Source: an uncultured Clostridia bacterium (lineage in GTDB: Bacteria; Bacillota; Clostridia; UMGS1883). Taken from it: 64,000 nt of DNA. Shown here piece after piece: positions 4,199 through 18,259 of the stretch (position 1 is its first letter; every line of letters starts with the position of its first letter). A program made the position numbers and the translations under genes. The stretch covers positions 29,250-93,249 of the forward strand of contig CANQRB010000004.1 in NCBI GenBank assembly GCA_947626145.1, read 5' to 3'. Under the pieces are notes generated by a model, which searched no databases, had not been told where the DNA came from, and worked only from the letters and a program-made list of their open reading frames with translations.

Positions 4199-4232
4199 TA
4201 GAAAATCGGCAGTAATAACTTTTCACACGACA

Positions 4233-4262
4233 AAAACGGAACCTTTCGGTTCCGTTTTTGTT
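4233..4262. terminator. Intrinsic terminator hairpin (aaaacggaacc-tttc-ggttccgtttt) followed by a T run; A run upstream allows bidirectional use
   Basis: Perfect 11-bp stem with 4-nt loop, then TTTTTG; about 35 nt downstream of the kinase stop. Confidence 0.6.
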
Positions 4263-4532
4263 TGGCTCGGGCCGCCCTGTGGTCGAGGCAGGGCGGCCTT
4301 GTGCCTGTAATTTAAGGAAGAATTATAACCACGCTTTCTTTCAGCTCGGTTTTCCGGGCGGCAGCTTCCTCGCGCGCGCCGCCTTTTTTCTGTCCGGCTC
4401 CGCTGCAGACGGGCGGATCAGGGATGGCCTCGCCTTTGGAAAGCGGCGGTTAACTTGGGTCGGGGTGGCCGGTCTGTTGCGGCCACGGTGTGAGTGGAAT
4501 CAGTTTGCAAAAATCTGTTAACACAAAATAGT

Positions 4533-4706
4533 TTATTGTTTCTGCTTCCAAACCTTATAATCGTCAACAACAGATTTTGTATCTGTGATAACTTTTGCCC
4601 CGGTTATGCCTAAACTGGTCGCTTGGAACAGAACCCCGTCCATAACGGCCTTATCGGGAGACAGGTCTTTAATATCTATTGCGGGATTTTCAAATGCTTT
4701 TCTCAT
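4533..4706 (-). CDS. Small hypothetical protein (57 aa) translationally coupled downstream of the 1034-aa surface protein gene; below the ORF-track size cutoff
   Basis: GGAGG, 9-nt spacer, ATG at 4706, starting 14 nt after the upstream stop. Translation MRKAFENPAIDIKDLSPDKAVMDGVLFQATSLGITGAKVITDTKSVVDDYKVWKQKQ. Confidence 0.4.
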   Translation of the reverse strand: MRKAFENPAIDIKDLSPDKAVMDGVLFQATSLGITGAKVITDTKSVVDDYKVWKQKQ

Positions 4707-4720
4707 TTTAATCTACCTCC

Positions 4721-7700
4721 TTACAGCTCGGGAATGAAGTCGACTTCCGCACCAGCGGAATCAGCTTCGGTCTCGGCGATTTCGGTACTTACAAACTCAA
4801 TCTCAACACTGTCTAGGCTGAAGATCATAGCACCATCAACGCCTTCACAAGTAACATCATTGCCATTGATAGTTATCTTATAGAACAAGCCCTCAGTTTG
4901 AGTTGCTGTTTTATCTGTGCCGTTTACATCAACAATGGTAGATACCTTGAAGCCTATACCATTATCGTAAAGGGCTTTATCCAGTTCTATCGTTGTTCCT
5001 GCTTCACTGCTTGTAACTTTAATGAATTCTTTACGAACATCGTTAATAGCGTTCTTGTCATCAAGAACAACACCGCCGGTGCTGAGAATAGCAATGGCCT
5101 GTTCAAGCTTTTTTGCATCAAATTTTTCACGATTCAAAGTATCTTTGTAGTCGCTAAGGTTGGTTTTGATATCGTTAGCAAGCAACTCATAAAGAGATGC
5201 TTCAGCTTGAGCGATGAGATAACCGCTATTTGTGTCAACAAGCCTTGCCATATAGTAAATATTGCTTCCATTGTCTTTTTTCGGAATAACAAGTACAGAC
5301 GGAGCCCCGTTACTGAGGACAGAAGTGTCTATAGTCGTATTGTCTACTCCTTTACCGCCTTTTTCATTTGTTGTTTCGTGAAGATCAATAGCTGTAACCT
5401 TTAGCGTCTGTCCATCATAAGCACCATCGGCAGTAAAAGTTATGCCCAAAGTATCCGCACTGTCTCCATCAGCAGCAAAGCCAAGTCCAGCGGTGAGTGT
5501 AGCCGTCGCAGGAACGTCCACGCCACCTGCATATACGGCAAACTTGCTGATCTCAAGGTCTCCTTCACTTGAGGGATTGTTTCCAAAGAAGGAAACACCG
5601 TCAATTCCTCCATTGTTACGGAATGGTATGCCCATCAACATTTTACCTTCACCGGATGATTCATTCCGCACGGAAAGATTATATGTGTTATTTGTAACAT
5701 CAACATCTACGATAAAAGCATATGACTGATTAAGCTCCATTGTCATAAATTCTTTCTTGGCGGCGTTGTCTCTGTAGTAAATTTTGTCGCCACCGATAGG
5801 CAAATGAATACGAAGATTTGTGCCATACGCATCTGTCCCTTTTGCGTCGTACTTAAAAAATCCGATAGCGTTGTCGCCGTTTTGTTTGGCAACAAGAGTA
5901 AATGCGACGGTAAATTTGTCTGATATTTCTTTAGGGAAACGATACATTTCACTAAATGTCCTACCCTGATTGTTGATTACTGAGTTAGAACCAACGGTCA
6001 TGCCGGCTGTAGGATCAAATGTCTTTTCATGAGTCACAACATTTGCCGTCAAGGTAAGGCCTGTATCGGCGATAGTGCCGGTAGTATCCTCCCATGTTAC
6101 GGGCAATTCCTCGGCTGTCACTGCATCACTGTCAACAGTGGTCTTAATTGCGGTGGGAAGAACATAGTTATATCCTTCGAGAGTATTAATGTCAATGCTG
6201 TCGGGGCCGGTGATGGTGGCAGTTAACTCGGCCTCAACCTCAATTTCCTTAGTAGTGGTTGCGATAATAGTATCCTGATCAGACGCCTTATTGGTATAAT
6301 ATTTATCTGCTATGCGACGATTAGTAATAATCTTGCCATCACTGGCGGCACGGCCTTGATCAACGACCTGGTTTTCTGCAACTTTTACCGTTTCGCCTAC
6401 CTTGCCGGTCTGTTTCTCGATAGTGGCTACAGTTTGACCCTTGTATTTGGCATTTATGACGTAATCCACATCGTCGTTTTCAAGATTGCTAAGTTTGGTT
6501 ATTTTGAAGTTGTCGATGATGGGCTGAGTATCGTTACCGACCCAAGCGGTCTTAAAGCCCAGTTTTGTCTGCTTGGAACCGGTCCATACAATAAACTGCT
6601 TCGTCTCAAATTGATTGAGAGTGTGCAGGGTCATCTGCTGAAGCTTTTGGCTGGTATTGTCATTTTTGTCGGCATACCAATCAGCGCAGGGGTCGTCGGC
6701 CTCGCCGGTGCCATTGGCATCGGTTACGTAAAGCCACATATACTGATCCTTTGCCTGCTTGGTTGGCATGACGTCAAAGCTCACGAGATAACGGGTATTG
6801 GGGTCAACATTCCAAGTGCCGCCGAAAACAGTTCCGGCCGCACCGGCAACGCCCTTGAGCCAAAGAGCCTGGCTTCCTTCGGTCTTTTGGTTCTCACCCT
6901 TGACTATCTCATATTCTTCATTGGGTATATTAGTCCAACCATTAATACCATTTTCAAAGCCGTCGTTGGTGCCGGTAACAGTTCCCTCGACATTTTTTAC
7001 ATGTTTGGCGGTAATGTCGTAGTTGTTATTACCTTCACTCAAAGTGATCTCTTTGATTTCGGGGAGAGCAAGTTCATAAAGCTTTTCATTTTTAACAAGG
7101 TACTTGTTGCAACTGTTGAGAGAAAACTTATCTCCGGCAAAGTATTCCTTTTTATTTCCGTTTGGATTAGACTCCTCCAAAACATTTCCGCCGTCCATTA
7201 TGCGAACATTGACAGCAGCGTCGGGAGACAAAACCTTAACATCAGCAAGGTAAGCATCCTTAAGAGAAGCTACACCCCCAGTGGCATCTCCGCCGTGGAT
7301 ATTGGAGAGCAGAAAAGCGACCTTACCACCAACTATCTTATCGGCAGGAATACGGAGCTGAGACGTCACCTCAGTCCATGAATTAGATACATTTGATGTA
7401 CTCAGTGTTCCGACAAGAACTCTGCCCTCAACAGCAGTATCGAGCAGAGCGTTGTTCTCAGCTTCAACAGCTGCAGGGTCAACAGCAAAAATGGCAGCTT
7501 TAGATATACGGTCGTTAGCACCATTGTTAGACCATGCCTGAACCTTAAAGGTAGCCCGAAGAATTTGACCGGCAGCAACATTAGTGTCTTCTGGCAGTGT
7601 GAATTCAGCAAAACCCGCACGGTTATTTGAGAAAGACACTATGGCAGACTGAGCGTCTTGAACTTTGTATTCGTCAAATGTTTGCGGACGCTTAGCATCG

Positions 7701-7825
7701 GAATTAAAATTCCAACCATAAAGCTTATCTGCGGCGATATCTCCATCAGCCGCAAAAGCTACGGGCACTACTGTCAATACCATGGCCAAAACCACAGCCA
7801 ATGACAGAACTTTTTTGATTCTCAT
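4721..7825 (-). CDS. Large secreted multidomain surface protein (signal peptide; CBM4/9-like carbohydrate-binding and bacterial Ig-like regions); no SLH or LPXTG anchor seen
   Basis: N-terminal signal peptide MRIKKVLSLAVVLAMVLTVVPVAFA|AD. GFENGINGW...W segment typical of CBM_4_9. Ig-like beta-rich segments. Strong RBS GGAGGTAACAAAAATG. Confidence 0.7.
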   Translation of the reverse strand: MRIKKVLSLAVVLAMVLTVVPVAFAADGDIAADKLYGWNFNSDAKRPQTFDEYKVQDAQSAIVSFSNNRAGFAEFTLPEDTNVAAGQILRATFKVQAWSNNGANDRISKAAIFAVDPAAVEAENNALLDTAVEGRVLVGTLSTSNVSNSWTEVTSQLRIPADKIVGGKVAFLLSNIHGGDATGGVASLKDAYLADVKVLSPDAAVNVRIMDGGNVLEESNPNGNKKEYFAGDKFSLNSCNKYLVKNEKLYELALPEIKEITLSEGNNNYDITAKHVKNVEGTVTGTNDGFENGINGWTNIPNEEYEIVKGENQKTEGSQALWLKGVAGAAGTVFGGTWNVDPNTRYLVSFDVMPTKQAKDQYMWLYVTDANGTGEADDPCADWYADKNDNTSQKLQQMTLHTLNQFETKQFIVWTGSKQTKLGFKTAWVGNDTQPIIDNFKITKLSNLENDDVDYVINAKYKGQTVATIEKQTGKVGETVKVAENQVVDQGRAASDGKIITNRRIADKYYTNKASDQDTIIATTTKEIEVEAELTATITGPDSIDINTLEGYNYVLPTAIKTTVDSDAVTAEELPVTWEDTTGTIADTGLTLTANVVTHEKTFDPTAGMTVGSNSVINNQGRTFSEMYRFPKEISDKFTVAFTLVAKQNGDNAIGFFKYDAKGTDAYGTNLRIHLPIGGDKIYYRDNAAKKEFMTMELNQSYAFIVDVDVTNNTYNLSVRNESSGEGKMLMGIPFRNNGGIDGVSFFGNNPSSEGDLEISKFAVYAGGVDVPATATLTAGLGFAADGDSADTLGITFTADGAYDGQTLKVTAIDLHETTNEKGGKGVDNTTIDTSVLSNGAPSVLVIPKKDNGSNIYYMARLVDTNSGYLIAQAEASLYELLANDIKTNLSDYKDTLNREKFDAKKLEQAIAILSTGGVVLDDKNAINDVRKEFIKVTSSEAGTTIELDKALYDNGIGFKVSTIVDVNGTDKTATQTEGLFYKITINGNDVTCEGVDGAMIFSLDSVEIEFVSTEIAETEADSAGAEVDFIPEL

Positions 7826-7878
7826 TTTTGTTACCTCCTTAAAATTTTGCTAAAAAATAAATCCTCGATTTCATGCGC

Positions 7879-7906
7879 ACTTCCTATAAGAAATGCTATC
7901 GGAAGT
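7879..7906. repeat. Left recombinase-site-like inverted repeat: 10-bp arms around an 8-bp asymmetric core (ACTTCCTATA-AGAAATGC-TATCGGAAGT)
   Basis: 27/28 identical to the reverse complement of the site at 8187-8214. The asymmetric 8-bp core is exactly reverse-complementary between the two sites. Confidence 0.6.
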
Positions 7907-8023
7907 AAATTTATGCCGTTTTACGGCAATATTTACAACATAAAAATGAAAATTAGAAATTATTTGTTGAAATTGCACAATTACTCACAACAATTTTGTA
8001 CATTATGGATAAGGGAAAGATAT

Positions 8024-8052
8024 TGACTTTTTTATGGCAAAAGTAGTATAAT
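8024..8052 (+). promoter_or_regulatory. Consensus sigma-A type promoter TTGACT-17-TATAAT on the plus strand, inside the IR-flanked segment
   Basis: -35 TTGACT at 8024-8029, exact 17-nt spacer, -10 TATAAT at 8047-8052. Confidence 0.6.
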
Positions 8053-8186
8053 TAGATTATAAAATTTCATGTGCCGATCATAGGAAAGCCTCGGAAAAAG
8101 GCCGTGTTAAGCCGGATTTGCCCGGTTGACGGCGCAGAGGTCGACTGCAAAGCCAGCCTTGGAGCGATGAATGGCCGCTCGGTTTT

Positions 8187-8214
8187 ACTTCCGATAGCAT
8201 TTCTTATCGGAAGT
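8187..8214. repeat. Right recombinase-site-like inverted repeat (ACTTCCGATA-GCATTTCT-TATCGGAAGT)
   Basis: Perfect 10-bp inverted arms; core GCATTTCT is the reverse complement of the left-site core AGAAATGC. Confidence 0.6.
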
Positions 8215-8235
8215 TCGATGAAATCATACAAAAAA

Positions 8236-8283
8236 GCACCTGTGACAAGCTCTTTATCGTGAGCTTGCCGCAGGTGTTTTTTT
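8236..8283 (+). terminator. Intrinsic terminator: about 16-bp imperfect stem (gcacctgtgacaagctc...gagcttgccgcaggtg) then T7
   Basis: Hairpin 8236-8276 followed by TTTTTTT at 8277-8283; sits just downstream of the right IR and before the ECF sigma gene. Confidence 0.55.
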
Positions 8284-8318
8284 AATGTGATGCCGTTATT
8301 TTCGATATAACGCAAAAA

Positions 8319-8344
8319 GCAGCCGATTTCGGCCGCTTTTTTTA
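8319..8344 (+). terminator. Second intrinsic terminator (gcagccga-ttt-cggccgc then T8)
   Basis: GC-rich hairpin followed by TTTTTTTT; A run upstream. Confidence 0.45.
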
Positions 8345-8425
8345 TTATACGCCTACGTCGCAATCCGTTCTTTGGTATCATAGTTGTATAGGCTTGTATT
8401 TCGCATAAAAAATTTAAAATTTTCC

Positions 8426-8453
8426 TGCAACTTTTCGATCCTTTGCAACGAAT
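8426..8453 (+). promoter_or_regulatory. Candidate ECF-type autoregulated promoter (-35 TGCAAC, 17 nt, -10 CGAAT) just upstream of the ECF sigma gene
   Basis: The TGCAAC -35 resembles the SigM/SigX/SigW class; a second TGCAAC copy lies nearby; about 15 nt from the RBS. Confidence 0.3.
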
Positions 8454-8471
8454 ATATTAAGTGGAAGGAGG

Positions 8472-9041
8472 TTGAGCGGATTGGCGGCGGAGCACGAGGA
8501 ACTTAAATGGATAAGGAAAATCAAGCTGTTCGGTTCAAAAAAAGACGCCGACAGTCTGGTTCGGTCTTATTACGATGAGATTTACAGATATGTATCCCGA
8601 CAGCTTCCCGACAGCGGGGACGCCTGGGATCTTACTCAGGAAATCTTTATATCCATGCTGCGCTCCATAAAGTCGTACAAAAAAGAACGGTCGTCCTTCC
8701 GCACATGGCTGTACCGCATCGCCACAAACAAAATTATAGACTGCCGCCGGAAAAAGGTTCCGACGACTGCCGCGCCCGACGAAGTCAATACAGCCGACGA
8801 TGCCGATTTTATAAGTCAAATCGCCCAGGCCGAGCTGCTGAAAAAAATCGAGGGCTATGTCAACCGCTTTTCGCCCGCCGTGCAGCAGATATACAGACTG
8901 CACATTTACGGGGATTTTACCTTCGCAAGCATCGCTTCAGCCCTGGACATCCCTGAGGCCACCGTAAAATCCCACTATTACAGATTGCAGAAAAAAATAA
9001 GAGAGGAGTTTGGCGATGAGTACAGAGACGTTGTCGAATGA
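8472..9041 (+). CDS. ECF (sigma-70 region 2/4) RNA polymerase sigma factor; TTG start at 8472 or 8481
   Basis: Sigma-70 region 2 (YYDEIYRYVSRQLPDSGDAWDLTQEIFISM) and region 4 HTH (FASIASALDIPEATVKSHYYRLQKKI). AGGAGG lies 9 nt before the TTG at 8481. Confidence 0.85.
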   Translation: MSGLAAEHEELKWIRKIKLFGSKKDADSLVRSYYDEIYRYVSRQLPDSGDAWDLTQEIFISMLRSIKSYKKERSSFRTWLYRIATNKIIDCRRKKVPTTAAPDEVNTADDADFISQIAQAELLKKIEGYVNRFSPAVQQIYRLHIYGDFTFASIASALDIPEATVKSHYYRLQKKIREEFGDEYRDVVE

Positions 9042-13927: not shown

Positions 13928-16900
13928 TTATAAGGCTATCATACCATCAGTTTCATCATTACCATTAAGTTCTTCGTCCTTTTTGCCTGTGTTTTTATTC
14001 TCAGATATATCTCCTTCGAAAGCTGTTTCGACGGACTCTTCATTTTTAAGTTCTTTGCCTCCAAACTCATTACTGATATCCTTTATTGGCACTTTGTCTG
14101 GCAAGGATTCAATAGAAACTAGTGACTCTTCATCATGATAATTTATTAATATGCCATTAGATATTTTGAATACAGGCCAAGAGTTTCCTGATTGGTTAGA
14201 AGAAACTTTGTACACCTCAACTAAGTTATTTCCATTATATAACTCTACCTGTGCACCCGAAGTCGCCCAAGTACCTTCACCGTAGAACCAGTATACATAA
14301 TATTCATATGTGCTATTTATGTCCACTTCAAATGTAACGGTTTCCGGCCCTTCTCCATCGGTATCATCCACATCCAAATTGGCCACCAAATCTCCTGATG
14401 CATTATATCCGTTTCTGTTAGAAAAATATACATGAAAGTTTCTATGGTCTGAAAGGCTTCCAACCAAATGAGAGTCTAAGTCGCTGGGATTCATGTTCCA
14501 ACGAAGAACTGCCCTATATTGATTGCTAGTCATCGAAGGAGAAATGCTTCCATTTTGATTGGCAACTTCTCTTCCCCCAATTATTGTGACGTTGAAATAT
14601 CCGGTGGTGTATCCGTACTTTTCCATTTCTATTGTATAATACCCAGAGGATGCAGTTAGTGAATATTCACCACTACCGTTAGTTATTGTTGAAGATATTT
14701 CCTCACCTTTACTACTATTCCACCCGTTTCTCAACCTGACTATTACGCCATCAATAGGATATCCGGTTGTTGCGCTTGTAATAACGCCGCTTATTTTTCC
14801 TTCACCAGACTTTACAAGTTTAACAAGTTCTTCTGTTTGGTTGTCTTTTGTTACTGTCGCAAGCCCGTAGAAAGGCATATAACCGTCTTTTTCAATAACA
14901 ACAGAATATGTTCCCACATCAAGAGACAGTTCTTTTGCTCCCTCTGCGCCTATTTGAACTTTCCCAATCAAGAAATCATCATCAAGTATAGATATAGTTG
15001 CATCTTTTATAAATGTTTCATCTTCCGCATCAACAATTTGTATATAAAGAGTACCTCTATCCCCATATATACCAACATCATCAAATGCACGTTTTATAGT
15101 CATTTTTTCCGCTTTAGACAATCCCTGAGTATCAGCTTGAAGCAGTACATTTCTCCTTACGGTTTTAAAGTTAGAATTTGCACTGAAGCCCTTGCCCAAC
15201 GAACCATACCATAGGTCTATAAGCTTAGACATTGAAATGGCCGGAAGACTATAAGAGGGATAGCCTTGTGACATTAAATATGCAGCATGAGAAATTACTG
15301 ATGAATTCGTGTGAGCAAATACTGATTTATTACCAGTATTAGTGCACCAATTAGTTCCACCAACTTTACTGGGCTTATGGCAGGAAGATGGATCCTTAAC
15401 ATTTCTTAATGGTCGCCAGTCCTCCCCTATGGTATAGTTATTATCATCAACGAACCATCCAAAGATATCTGCGTATGCTTCGTTGATTGCATAAGATATA
15501 TGACCATTACTGTGATCGTGACTAAGTCCATTCCCTGTCTTAAACTGAACTACTCCATGAGTGTACTCATGAGCAATAATATCAAGTCCGCTGGCCGTAG
15601 TAGTTTGGAGATTACTGTCGTTATTACTATTATCATAAAAATAGAATTCTTTGTTGCCGCCTGTCCAACACGCATTACTACTGCCTCCAAATTTATGAAC
15701 AGTTACTTTAATAGGATATCCATTCCCGTCCACAGAGCGTCTGCCCAAAGTGTCCGCATACCAATTATATACATCTATCATATTGGTGTATGCAGAAATA
15801 GCCGTTTTATCTCGCCATACATTAAATTCACTGCCAACTCTACTATTAACAAGTCCCCCATCATACATTTTAATGTTTCTCTCTGAATCTTCCATATAGT
15901 AGAATAACCAATCCCATTGTTTAAATTGTACGGGGAATGACACTTCGGTATTTTTTTCATTTTCACCGCTACCAGTTACTCTTTTGTCGCCCCAGTCTAA
16001 AATATTGCTTCCAGAATAAATTACGGAACCAGTATATCCATTTATGATTACAGTTTCGTCAATATTGTCGCCAGACAAACAAATTACATATGCTACAACA
16101 GGACTTTGCTCATATTCATCAAGAGAATATATAACTACCTCTGTTGATACAACATCTACTGATTCTTGCGGGTACTGACTTTTAGCAATATTTATTGCTT
16201 CACTTTCTGATATCACGGGGTCGGTATTTACATCAACTAAGTTTGCAGATGCAACTACATCGGATGTTAATGAAGTAGATGTTCCATTATTATCTACAGA
16301 CACGGTTAAATTTCTATCATAAACGTCAAGCCCATTATATTGTTGACTAAAAGTATAATCAGTTCCGTATTTGCCAGAATTTGTCACAGATATATTTAAT
16401 TCTTTTATTGGATCGTTCATGCCAAGAATTGTTCGAACTCCGTATATTGCATAAAGAGCATCGTCTGGGGAGTTTATATCAATATCACTTATTTTACCAC
16501 TTATCGCTGTTACTTGGGATCCCTCTTCATTGTATTCTATATAAGTATCAAAATCTGCATCCTTATTCATTTGCTCTATATCGACAACTGAATTATTAGG
16601 AGACTCATTAATATTAAAGTTACTTTCTTTTATAACCGTAACTTCAAAAGATTTTGTTAAATTATAGTCTCCTTTCGATATGCTAGCGTTGAGTCTAACA
16701 TTTTTATTCTCATTTATCGGACGTGAGACGGAACCGCTTTCTGAAACTACATTAATATTGTTACTTTCCCATGATATATCTACTGTTTCAATCATTGTTG
16801 GTAAAATCAAATCATGAGTAACAGATTCTTTACAGTCACCTTTACTATATGTAATTTCAAGAGTATCATATGCATATTGAACTATCGCTTTATTAAATTC

Positions 16901-18259
16901 ATTCTCATCATATTCTACCCACCTTGCATACAAAGTTAATTTATTGTTAACGGCCAATTTAAAATCATAGATATTTTCGCAATCCCTATCAGTATACCAG
17001 CCACCAAACAAATAATCTTTACGTTCAGGGTCTTTGGGAATTGTAACATTATTTCCAGCTAAAATCTCTTGACTTTCAGGCGCATCCTCTGCCCCTTCAT
17101 AATTCAAATCAAAGGTGACAGTGTAAACGCCGTCCTCCTCAATTTCTTCTTCCCAACCAGCATACAGAGTCAAGCGCTCGGTAATTTCCGTGTTCTCAAA
17201 ATCAAACTCATAAACGCATTCCTCATCTGTGTACCAGCCCGTGAAGATATAGCCCTCTCTTTCGGGATCATCGGGACGCTCTGCATAATCGTTCTTCTTT
17301 ACTTTCTGGGTAGCCGGAGGATTTTTCGCTCCTGAATAATTCAGGTCAAATTTTACATTGTATCTCGTGGTGCCGCCGGAGCTTCCGCCACCACCGCCAC
17401 CACCGGTGGAACGACTTATCGTATATTCAACGCTCATCACATCGCTGACAAGAACATCATCTTTTACCGCGATTGCCTTCAGTGTCGCGGTAGACAGTAT
17501 ATTTATATTGCCACCTGTGTATTCCTCGCTGTCAACTGTGGGCTCTGTTCCATCGGTCGTATAGTAAATCTTAACGCCCTCGGTGTCGCTCTTAAGCGTT
17601 ACAAGCTGATTTACATAATATGTGCCCGCCTCAACGGACGCGACAGGGGCGGCTACCGTTGTGCGGAGACCGTTATAAACCATTACGGCAATGTCCCCAC
17701 GGGTAGAGGCTGATCCCTTTCTGCCCTTGAGGTTATCCGTTATACCGTTATCCTCAGCCGCTTTAATATAGCCGGCAGACCAATCATCAGGGTCGGATTC
17801 AACATCGTCGCCAAGACCGACGCCGCAAACCACCATCTTTATGGCCTCTTCATATTTGACGTCGTCATCCGGCATAAATCCGCCGCTACCGTTGCCGTTT
17901 ATTATCTCCTCTTTCGCGGCGACATTGATGTAGCCGCTGGCCCAGTGGTCGGCGGGAACATCGTCAAACTTTGTGGCGCCCTTGGAATTGCGGGCATCGT
18001 TCTCCTTGCCTATCATGCGGCATACTACCGCCGCCATTTCGGACCTTGTGATAGATTTATCCGCCCCAAATGTACCGTCGGCGTAGCCGGTGAAAATGTC
18101 GAGCTTTTCCAGAGCGAGAGCCGCCTCGGCGTAATACTCATTCCCCGTAACATCGGAAAAGACCGTGCCTGCGGCAAAAGCACCGATCGGCGCAAGCGAC
18201 AGTGTCATTGCCAAAACTAAAATGATGCTTAAAAATTTTTTCACGATTGTAACCTCCAA
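13928..18259 (-). CDS. SLH-domain-anchored thermolysin-like (M4) zinc metalloprotease. Order: signal peptide, 3 SLH, Ig-like, Listeria-Bacteroides-type repeats, PepSY/FTP propeptide, M4 catalytic domain, C-terminal beta-sandwich domains. Likely GTG start at 18244
   Basis: SLH repeats (FSDVTGNEYYAEAALALEKLDIFTGYADGTFGADKSITRSEMAAV...). GWYTD repeats. HEXXH as IIAHEYTHGVVQ plus downstream NEAYADIFG (thermolysin-type zinc ligands). Poly-Gly linker. GGAGGT lies 7 nt before the GTG. Confidence 0.85.
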   Translation of the reverse strand: MEVTIVKKFLSIILVLAMTLSLAPIGAFAAGTVFSDVTGNEYYAEAALALEKLDIFTGYADGTFGADKSITRSEMAAVVCRMIGKENDARNSKGATKFDDVPADHWASGYINVAAKEEIINGNGSGGFMPDDDVKYEEAIKMVVCGVGLGDDVESDPDDWSAGYIKAAEDNGITDNLKGRKGSASTRGDIAVMVYNGLRTTVAAPVASVEAGTYYVNQLVTLKSDTEGVKIYYTTDGTEPTVDSEEYTGGNINILSTATLKAIAVKDDVLVSDVMSVEYTISRSTGGGGGGGSSGGTTRYNVKFDLNYSGAKNPPATQKVKKNDYAERPDDPEREGYIFTGWYTDEECVYEFDFENTEITERLTLYAGWEEEIEEDGVYTVTFDLNYEGAEDAPESQEILAGNNVTIPKDPERKDYLFGGWYTDRDCENIYDFKLAVNNKLTLYARWVEYDENEFNKAIVQYAYDTLEITYSKGDCKESVTHDLILPTMIETVDISWESNNINVVSESGSVSRPINENKNVRLNASISKGDYNLTKSFEVTVIKESNFNINESPNNSVVDIEQMNKDADFDTYIEYNEEGSQVTAISGKISDIDINSPDDALYAIYGVRTILGMNDPIKELNISVTNSGKYGTDYTFSQQYNGLDVYDRNLTVSVDNNGTSTSLTSDVVASANLVDVNTDPVISESEAINIAKSQYPQESVDVVSTEVVIYSLDEYEQSPVVAYVICLSGDNIDETVIINGYTGSVIYSGSNILDWGDKRVTGSGENEKNTEVSFPVQFKQWDWLFYYMEDSERNIKMYDGGLVNSRVGSEFNVWRDKTAISAYTNMIDVYNWYADTLGRRSVDGNGYPIKVTVHKFGGSSNACWTGGNKEFYFYDNSNNDSNLQTTTASGLDIIAHEYTHGVVQFKTGNGLSHDHSNGHISYAINEAYADIFGWFVDDNNYTIGEDWRPLRNVKDPSSCHKPSKVGGTNWCTNTGNKSVFAHTNSSVISHAAYLMSQGYPSYSLPAISMSKLIDLWYGSLGKGFSANSNFKTVRRNVLLQADTQGLSKAEKMTIKRAFDDVGIYGDRGTLYIQIVDAEDETFIKDATISILDDDFLIGKVQIGAEGAKELSLDVGTYSVVIEKDGYMPFYGLATVTKDNQTEELVKLVKSGEGKISGVITSATTGYPIDGVIVRLRNGWNSSKGEEISSTITNGSGEYSLTASSGYYTIEMEKYGYTTGYFNVTIIGGREVANQNGSISPSMTSNQYRAVLRWNMNPSDLDSHLVGSLSDHRNFHVYFSNRNGYNASGDLVANLDVDDTDGEGPETVTFEVDINSTYEYYVYWFYGEGTWATSGAQVELYNGNNLVEVYKVSSNQSGNSWPVFKISNGILINYHDEESLVSIESLPDKVPIKDISNEFGGKELKNEESVETAFEGDISENKNTGKKDEELNGNDETDGMIAL

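Follow-up and report, generated by a model that had tools for sequence, protein, structure and literature searches.

What do two tandem transcription terminators act on when the number of coding genes ending near them is zero? This question is raised by a 655-nt divergent intergenic region in the genome of an uncultured Clostridia bacterium, analysed here within a 64,000-nucleotide stretch of one contig that we refer to as the window. Two hairpins followed by T tracts, T1 and T2, are placed in this region between a gene for a 1034-aa secreted protein and an ECF sigma factor gene. The original prediction held that they stop transcription from a strong, switchable promoter after 230-290 nt and in this way insulate the ECF operon, or alternatively that the short transcript is itself a regulatory RNA.

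T1 (8230-8283, + strand) consists of an A6 tract (8230-8235), a 16-bp stem whose 5′ arm CACCTGTGACAAGCTC occupies 8237-8252 and whose 3′ arm GAGCTTGCCGCAGGTG occupies 8261-8276, an 8-nt loop (8253-8260), and a T7 tract directly after the stem (8277-8283). Its 16 pairs include one A.C mismatch and one G.U pair. T2 (8314-8343, + strand) is built in the same order, with an A5 tract (8314-8318), a 7-bp stem formed by GCAGCCG and CGGCCGC (8319-8325 and 8330-8336, one A.C mismatch) around a 4-nt loop, and a T7 tract directly after the stem (8337-8343). Both elements thus have the makeup of an intrinsic terminator, that is, a G+C-containing hairpin with a U run directly after it. The folding energy of T1 with its A/U extension is -32.6 kcal/mol (z = -9.6) and that of T2 on the + strand is -13.7 kcal/mol (z = -3.7), and in neither case was any of 200 shuffled sequences as stable. 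With a core stem of -24.8 kcal/mol, T1 ranked among the six strongest hairpin-plus-T-tract sites in our own scan of both strands of the whole 64-kb window (128 kb of strand). A consensus scan had missed both hairpins because it requires unbroken stems and each carries an A.C mismatch. Given that an A tract lies upstream of each hairpin and that each also folds stably on the minus strand (T1, -28.2 kcal/mol; T2, -18.4 kcal/mol), both T1 and T2 could terminate bidirectionally. A further small hairpin, CGTTAT-TTTCGAT-ATAACG, lies between the two (window 8294-8312) and is conserved, being kept in two other loci, L076 and L143.

The strand that enters T1 and T2 carries a near-consensus sigma-70 promoter, TTGACT-18-TATAAT, at 8023-8052 (+ strand), which matches the consensus at 11 of 12 positions, was the top promoter match within the 5-kb region scanned, and is conserved at all four loci where the cassette described below was found. 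T1 is placed 185 nt 3′ of its -10 element on the same strand. The promoter sits between two inverted repeats and faces away from the 1034-aa gene, toward T1 and T2. The left repeat occupies 7876-7909, with a core (7879-7906) that reads ACTTCCTATA-AGAAATGC-TATCGGAAGT, and the right repeat occupies 8184-8217, with a core (8187-8214) that reads ACTTCCGATA-GCATTTCT-TATCGGAAGT. The arms are 34 nt long, 94% complementary and 274 nt apart, with zero such matches expected by chance, and the window holds no further copy of the repeat core. The core is laid out as 10-8-10 with an asymmetric 8-nt spacer, a layout typical of tyrosine-recombinase core sites. The placement of the promoter between 34-nt repeats with such a core supports the earlier view of it as switchable. 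T1 begins 16 nt outside the right repeat, which as RNA forms a hairpin of its own (-13.5 kcal/mol).

Between the promoter and the right repeat lies a conserved 125-nt leader (8059-8183, + strand), which would be part of the transcript in either orientation of the segment. A start near 8059 would give, by sequence, RNAs of ~225 nt ending at T1 and ~285 nt ending at T2, in agreement with the transcript lengths first proposed. The leader block CGGCGCAGAGGTCGACTGC is invariant in 4/4 loci; when extended to ...AAAGCCAGCCTTGGAGC, it stays invariant in just three of them (the window, L076 and L059). The leader contains no conserved ORF. Two overlapping reading frames were rejected as genes: a 63-aa GTG ORF (8071-8262), which crosses the repeat and whose frame and start are lost at the other loci in the alignment, and a 104-aa minus-strand ORF (8067-8381), which overlaps both terminators. 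In a search of Rfam with 7700-8600, the best matches were miRNA and leader models at less than half the gathering score, arising from the terminator hairpins, and a search with the whole window returned no relevant family. An nhmmer profile of the leader run against all fetched loci recovered the four known loci and nothing further. Among JGI metagenomes, a 22-mer from the leader gave 0 matches and a 19-mer gave 16, all of them chance matches in G+C-rich soil contigs.

On the other side of the switch, the 1034-aa gene (4721-7825, - strand) is an ORF with a strong ribosome-binding site and a signal peptide, MRIKKVLSLAVVLAMVLTVVPVAFA. Pfam gave weak carbohydrate-binding-like matches only for this protein; its paralogues carry Laminin_G_3 and Big_4 domains. 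A protein search with the N-terminal 56 residues yielded no candidates. The left repeat is separated from the ATG by 50 nt that contain little beyond the ribosome-binding site, and since so little room is left, the gene would depend on the switch. We therefore presume that the 1034-aa gene is the target of the invertible promoter once the segment is flipped.

Several other features of the window were noted. A conserved ORF that encodes 56-59 aa and has a ribosome-binding site to itself follows every large paralogue after 12-20 nt, with or without a switch (window 4533-4706, - strand; L120-L126). In the window this ORF, of 57 aa, follows the 1034-aa gene, and 3′ of it lies a G+C-rich structured block of ~300 nt (4228-4532, - strand; -119.6 kcal/mol, z = -5.5) that is 88-94% identical at L059, L076 and L124, ends in a bidirectional terminator (4235-4262) and has no match in Rfam. 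Farther away, at 13928-18259 (- strand), the window encodes a surface protein of 1443 aa in which SLH domains and Listeria-Bacteroides repeats are combined with a peptidase domain of the M4 (thermolysin) type.

We modelled the flipped state in silico by inverting 7910-8183. In the resulting sequence the leader continues through the left repeat to the ribosome-binding site, and there is no terminator before the gene. RNAalifold detected 10 bp between the 5′ end of the leader, AAUUUCAUGYGC, and the gene-side flank, GCRCAUGAAAU, in the flipped RNA; in the window this flank lies at 7866-7878 (- strand) and reads GCGCAUGAAAUC in the flipped-state RNA. One position of this closing helix reads U.G, G-C, U-A and C-G across the four loci and is thus a fully covarying pair. 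In the assembled orientation, the leader 5′ end and the gene-side flank are direct repeats and cannot pair. As the helix is possible only after a flip, the covariation is indirect evidence that the flipped RNA exists and matters. The closing helix could possibly be a 5′ stabiliser of a highly expressed surface-protein mRNA. The flank on the opposite, OFF side also pairs with the leader 5′ end, by 7 bp and in three of the four loci.

All clean assemblies (the window, L148, L059, L076, L124 and L125) hold the segment in one orientation, with the promoter toward the terminators. Contigs break within the inverton in three samples, at 7993 in two and at 8174 in the third. An unusual arrangement is found on L143, a 1.65-kb contig from a close strain, in which the region to the left of the left repeat is a second, inverted version of the right flank (89% identical), complete with T1 and T2 and followed by unique sequence (copies of the repeat flank at 269-428 and 703-863). 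At its left junction, L143 has the terminator side adjoining the promoter-distal end of the segment body, as in the flipped state; this junction is possibly a chimera or a rearrangement. This contig may represent an ON-state cassette merged by the assembler with the ECF-side copy, or a real switch with terminators on both sides.

To determine which parts of the locus travel together, we turned to related loci elsewhere. A scan of GTDB genomes with the repeat core returned at least 118 loci, where chance alone would give roughly 9, and among these only L059 and L076, both from one uncultured Clostridia MAG from rabbit gut, are homologous to the window cassette. A protein search added L124/L125, a paralogous locus from the window's own samples, and the paralogues L120-L123 and L126, which have no switch. 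The window, L059 and L076 share a module that comprises ~60 nt of coding start plus the ribosome-binding site, the left repeat, the promoter, the leader, the right repeat and T1, and their alignment ends just past the terminators. The sequence beyond is different in each: the window has the ECF operon, L059 an HD-domain gene preceded by a promoter of its own (TTGACA-17-TATAAT), and L076 a terminase fragment in convergent orientation. On the gene side, L059 and the window are syntenic (prfB, GtrA), so the difference of L059 on the right-hand side represents a real change of neighbour. At L124/L125, the same inverton is accompanied by a non-homologous bidirectional terminator, AAAAAATCCGCTC-acac-GAGCGGATTTTT, ~110 nt beyond the far repeat, from which it follows that a terminator in this position arose or was kept at least twice. 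Seven of the eight invertons with the same core examined in other genomes have no outward terminator, the exception being one weak hairpin beyond L104 (-11.7 kcal/mol). Outward terminators therefore appear to be specific to this cassette family rather than general to invertons with this core.

The hairpins themselves were compared base pair by base pair. In the five copies of T1 (window, L076, L059 and the two sides of L143), standard pairs make up 88% of cells, as opposed to 25-41% once the partner is shifted by 1-3 columns. Compensatory changes on both sides are seen at five T1 pairs, and the covariation score was reached by 0 of 500 shuffles, in a sample that is small (four independent loci from two related species) and limits the statistics accordingly. 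Every T1 copy folds into the hairpin and keeps a T tract of T6-T8. The four copies of T2 (window, L076 and both sides of L143) likewise all fold and keep T6-T8; T2 is absent from L059. These patterns provide good support, rather than proof, for selection on T1 as a hairpin. That two tandem hairpin-plus-U-tract terminators occupy this site, as first proposed, is thus upheld by their sequence, their stable folds and their conservation.

The ECF sigma gene (8481-9041, + strand; Pfam Sigma70_r2 and r4_2) starts with TTG at 8481, 9 nt after GGAGG, and is followed on its 3′ side by a probable anti-sigma factor gene (247-249 aa) and ABC transporter genes. Upstream of it, TGCAAC-N17-CGAAT at 8426-8453 (+ strand) is the single match to an ECF-type promoter in the window. 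The motif TGCAACTTTT-N13-CGAATAT is found at a fixed distance from the ribosome-binding site in the window, in L143 and in the orthologous loci L144-L147. The orthologous sigma factors have 186 aa and ~70% identity, with the same genes downstream, and the genes upstream of them are unrelated (serine recombinase, histidine kinase, MgsA). No T1/T2 homologue, inverton or leader was detected upstream of these orthologues, which shows that the ECF unit does not include the terminators. Bacillus subtilis ECF promoters take forms such as TGAAAC-N16-CGTA. The arrangement here, with an AAC-type -35 and a CG-type -10 directly 5′ of the sigma gene and with sigma, anti-sigma and ABC transporter genes in a conserved order, resembles that of autoregulated ECF operons. 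The retention of the motif where the upstream genes are unrelated thus supports the earlier assignment of TGCAAC-17-CGAAT as a probable promoter of the ECF operon's own. In L143 (~905-960, compared with window 8360-8395), TTGACA-17-TATCAT has arisen between T2 and the ECF promoter through an insertion of 9 nt, the window reading TCGCAA there, and this may serve as an additional housekeeping promoter for the ECF operon in that strain.

We conclude, with a probability of about 0.78, that an invertible-promoter cassette carries T1 and T2 on its far side as Rho-independent terminators, where they insulate whatever lies beyond. In the assembled orientation, RNA polymerase would transcribe the leader and the right repeat and be released at T1 after ~225 nt, with T2 at ~285 nt as a back-up. 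By stopping the OFF transcript in this manner, the terminators would, we propose, prevent the strong promoter from reading into the neighbouring operon, and the ECF sigma operon would be driven instead by its own promoter at 8426-8453. A site-specific recombinase encoded elsewhere would flip the segment; neither the ten window ORFs tested nor the surroundings of the paralogous loci included a recombinase gene. After inversion, this promoter and its leader would be directed at the 1034-aa gene without an intervening terminator, and the gene-side flank would pair with the leader 5′ end. We infer from the anatomy and comparisons described above that the segment does invert, that T1 and T2 terminate efficiently and that the short RNA is a by-product. 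The proposed insulation of the ECF operon fits the finding that homology stops right after the terminators and that the neighbours differ from locus to locus. It is refined in one respect: the ECF operon is the neighbour of the terminators, with no functional tie at the other cassette loci, and the comparative sequence evidence supports terminators that belong to the inverton cassette and would protect whatever lies beyond, rather than an ECF-specific device.

Three other readings of the same elements deserve consideration. The ~225-nt OFF RNA, made up of the leader, the repeat hairpin and T1, could be a functional sRNA made only in OFF cells, such that the switch would toggle between a protein and an RNA. 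Its promoter is near consensus, the leader core is highly conserved, every clean assembly is in the OFF orientation, and the whole OFF RNA folds far better than shuffled sequences (z = -6.7). In addition, the pairing of the OFF flank with the leader 5′ end in three of the four loci would produce a closed and probably stable RNA, and a 7-bp pairing that stabilises a short RNA is unexpected for a pure waste product. However, leader conservation is equally explained if the leader is the 5′ UTR of the ON-state mRNA, and the covarying closing helix forms in the ON state only. At L124, moreover, the OFF side has an unrelated flank and an unrelated terminator, which would lengthen the RNA by ~100 nt. 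The RNA has neither an Rfam family nor homologues outside these cassettes, and antisense targets in the window are at chance level, with no complementarity longer than 13 nt. We thus consider a functional OFF sRNA unlikely; such a role would not conflict with insulation. Riboswitch-like conditional attenuation, in which the leader and T1/T2 would let the strong promoter drive the ECF operon in response to a signal, would account for a structured, conserved leader ahead of a terminator. It is extremely improbable, as the same leader and terminator face unrelated or convergent genes elsewhere, and the ECF orthologues lack a T1/T2 homologue, the inverton and the leader while retaining their own promoter. 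No antiterminator pairing with the T1 5′ arm was seen, no Rfam riboswitch matched, and two terminators in tandem also speak against this reading.

The remaining reading concerns direction. T1 and T2 might act mainly on transcription from the opposite side, or as boundaries, blocking antisense transcription that enters the switch and the gene from the right. Both hairpins have an A tract as well as a T tract and fold on the minus strand (-28.2 and -18.4 kcal/mol), and the end of a convergent, opposite-strand gene lies ~120 nt beyond T2 in L076. In the window and L059, by contrast, the next genes run away from the terminators, leaving nothing obvious to stop, and the sole constant at the four loci is a consensus promoter that fires toward them. 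A boundary role as the main function is therefore quite unlikely; it is compatible with, rather than opposed to, insulation of the region beyond the invertible promoter, which we continue to favour.

Phase-variable promoters and terminators have been described together in other bacteria. In the E. coli type 1 fimbriae switch fimS, a segment of ~300 bp between short inverted repeats carries the promoter for a surface structure, inversion connects or disconnects that promoter, and the switch logic includes a transcription terminator (PMC9993118). The fimS terminator is Rho-dependent, resides inside the invertible segment and acts on the recombinase gene fimE, not on the OFF-direction transcript of the switch promoter (PMC9993118), whereas the terminators described here are intrinsic, are fixed outside the repeats and face the switch promoter in the OFF orientation, and no recombinase gene is adjacent. 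In Clostridioides difficile, an intrinsic terminator ends a short OFF transcript of cwpV, which encodes a phase-variable cell-surface protein (PMC2784873). The cwpV promoter, however, is located outside the invertible region, and its terminator forms at the repeat junction in the OFF state only, ~60-70 nt after the transcription start (PMC2784873). Here, the promoter lies inside the repeats, and the terminators are permanent, outside, independent of orientation and placed to stop transcription that leaves the gene. This anatomy, with the promoter inside and the terminators outside, rules out a cwpV-type mechanism.

In general layout the cassette resembles gut invertons such as those at Bacteroides capsule loci and those predicted by PhaseFinder-type methods, which also place a promoter between inverted repeats near surface-protein genes (Jiang et al. 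2019 as cited in PMC10994844). The repeat core, the conserved leader and the conserved outward terminators set this cassette apart from them. A limited full-text literature search turned up no account of natural invertons in which conserved OFF-side terminators are a standard component; the design principle itself is an obvious one. The core ACTTCCGATA-N8-TATCGGAAGT is found widely, and individual MAGs of Clostridia, Lentisphaeria/Victivallaceae and Bacteroidales have several copies (genome loci L007, L009, L011, L014, L018, L019, L028, L039, L068, L073, L104 and L118). Some copies form inverted pairs with a distance of 120-390 bp, others identical direct pairs with a distance of 95-182 bp, and a recombinase of broad distribution appears to target this core. 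Given that several inverton copies per genome share one repeat type, such a recombinase would act in trans.

The gene attached to the switch also varies. In sample ERZ27249462, the ECF-adjacent cassette is joined to a different, 1188-aa gene (L148 1-782, compared with window 6980-7762): the cassette is 99.6% identical from window 7763 on, and the 1188-aa gene shares only the first ~20 codons with the 1034-aa gene. The 1034-aa gene is present on short contigs broken inside the inverton (L001 and L151, which end at window 7993). These observations suggest either an exchange of large surface-protein genes between 5′ and 3′ flanks that stay conserved or a difference between strains. A broader scheme can be imagined in which the leader is a new cis-acting RNA element with a closing helix that forms only upon inversion, the OFF transcript, abundant and capped by a terminator, is a functional sRNA, and the conserved 5′ cassette and 3′ structured block let surface-protein genes swap; as a whole, we regard this combination as doubtful.

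Both the mechanism and its parts are ordinary, and the locus is a new example whose value lies mainly in clean comparative evidence, a conserved leader and hints of gene exchange. It shows how a phase-variation switch with a very strong promoter could avoid collateral activation of its neighbours, by means of fixed tandem terminators on the OFF side that travel with the cassette upon duplication to new loci. It also accounts for terminators that apparently have no gene to terminate, and it carries the caution that a short promoter-to-terminator unit should not be taken for an sRNA gene until a switch has been checked for. Our findings should thus help the annotation of invertons in uncultured gut Clostridia, in which this cassette points to a small family of large secreted proteins that are phase-variable and possibly exchangeable.
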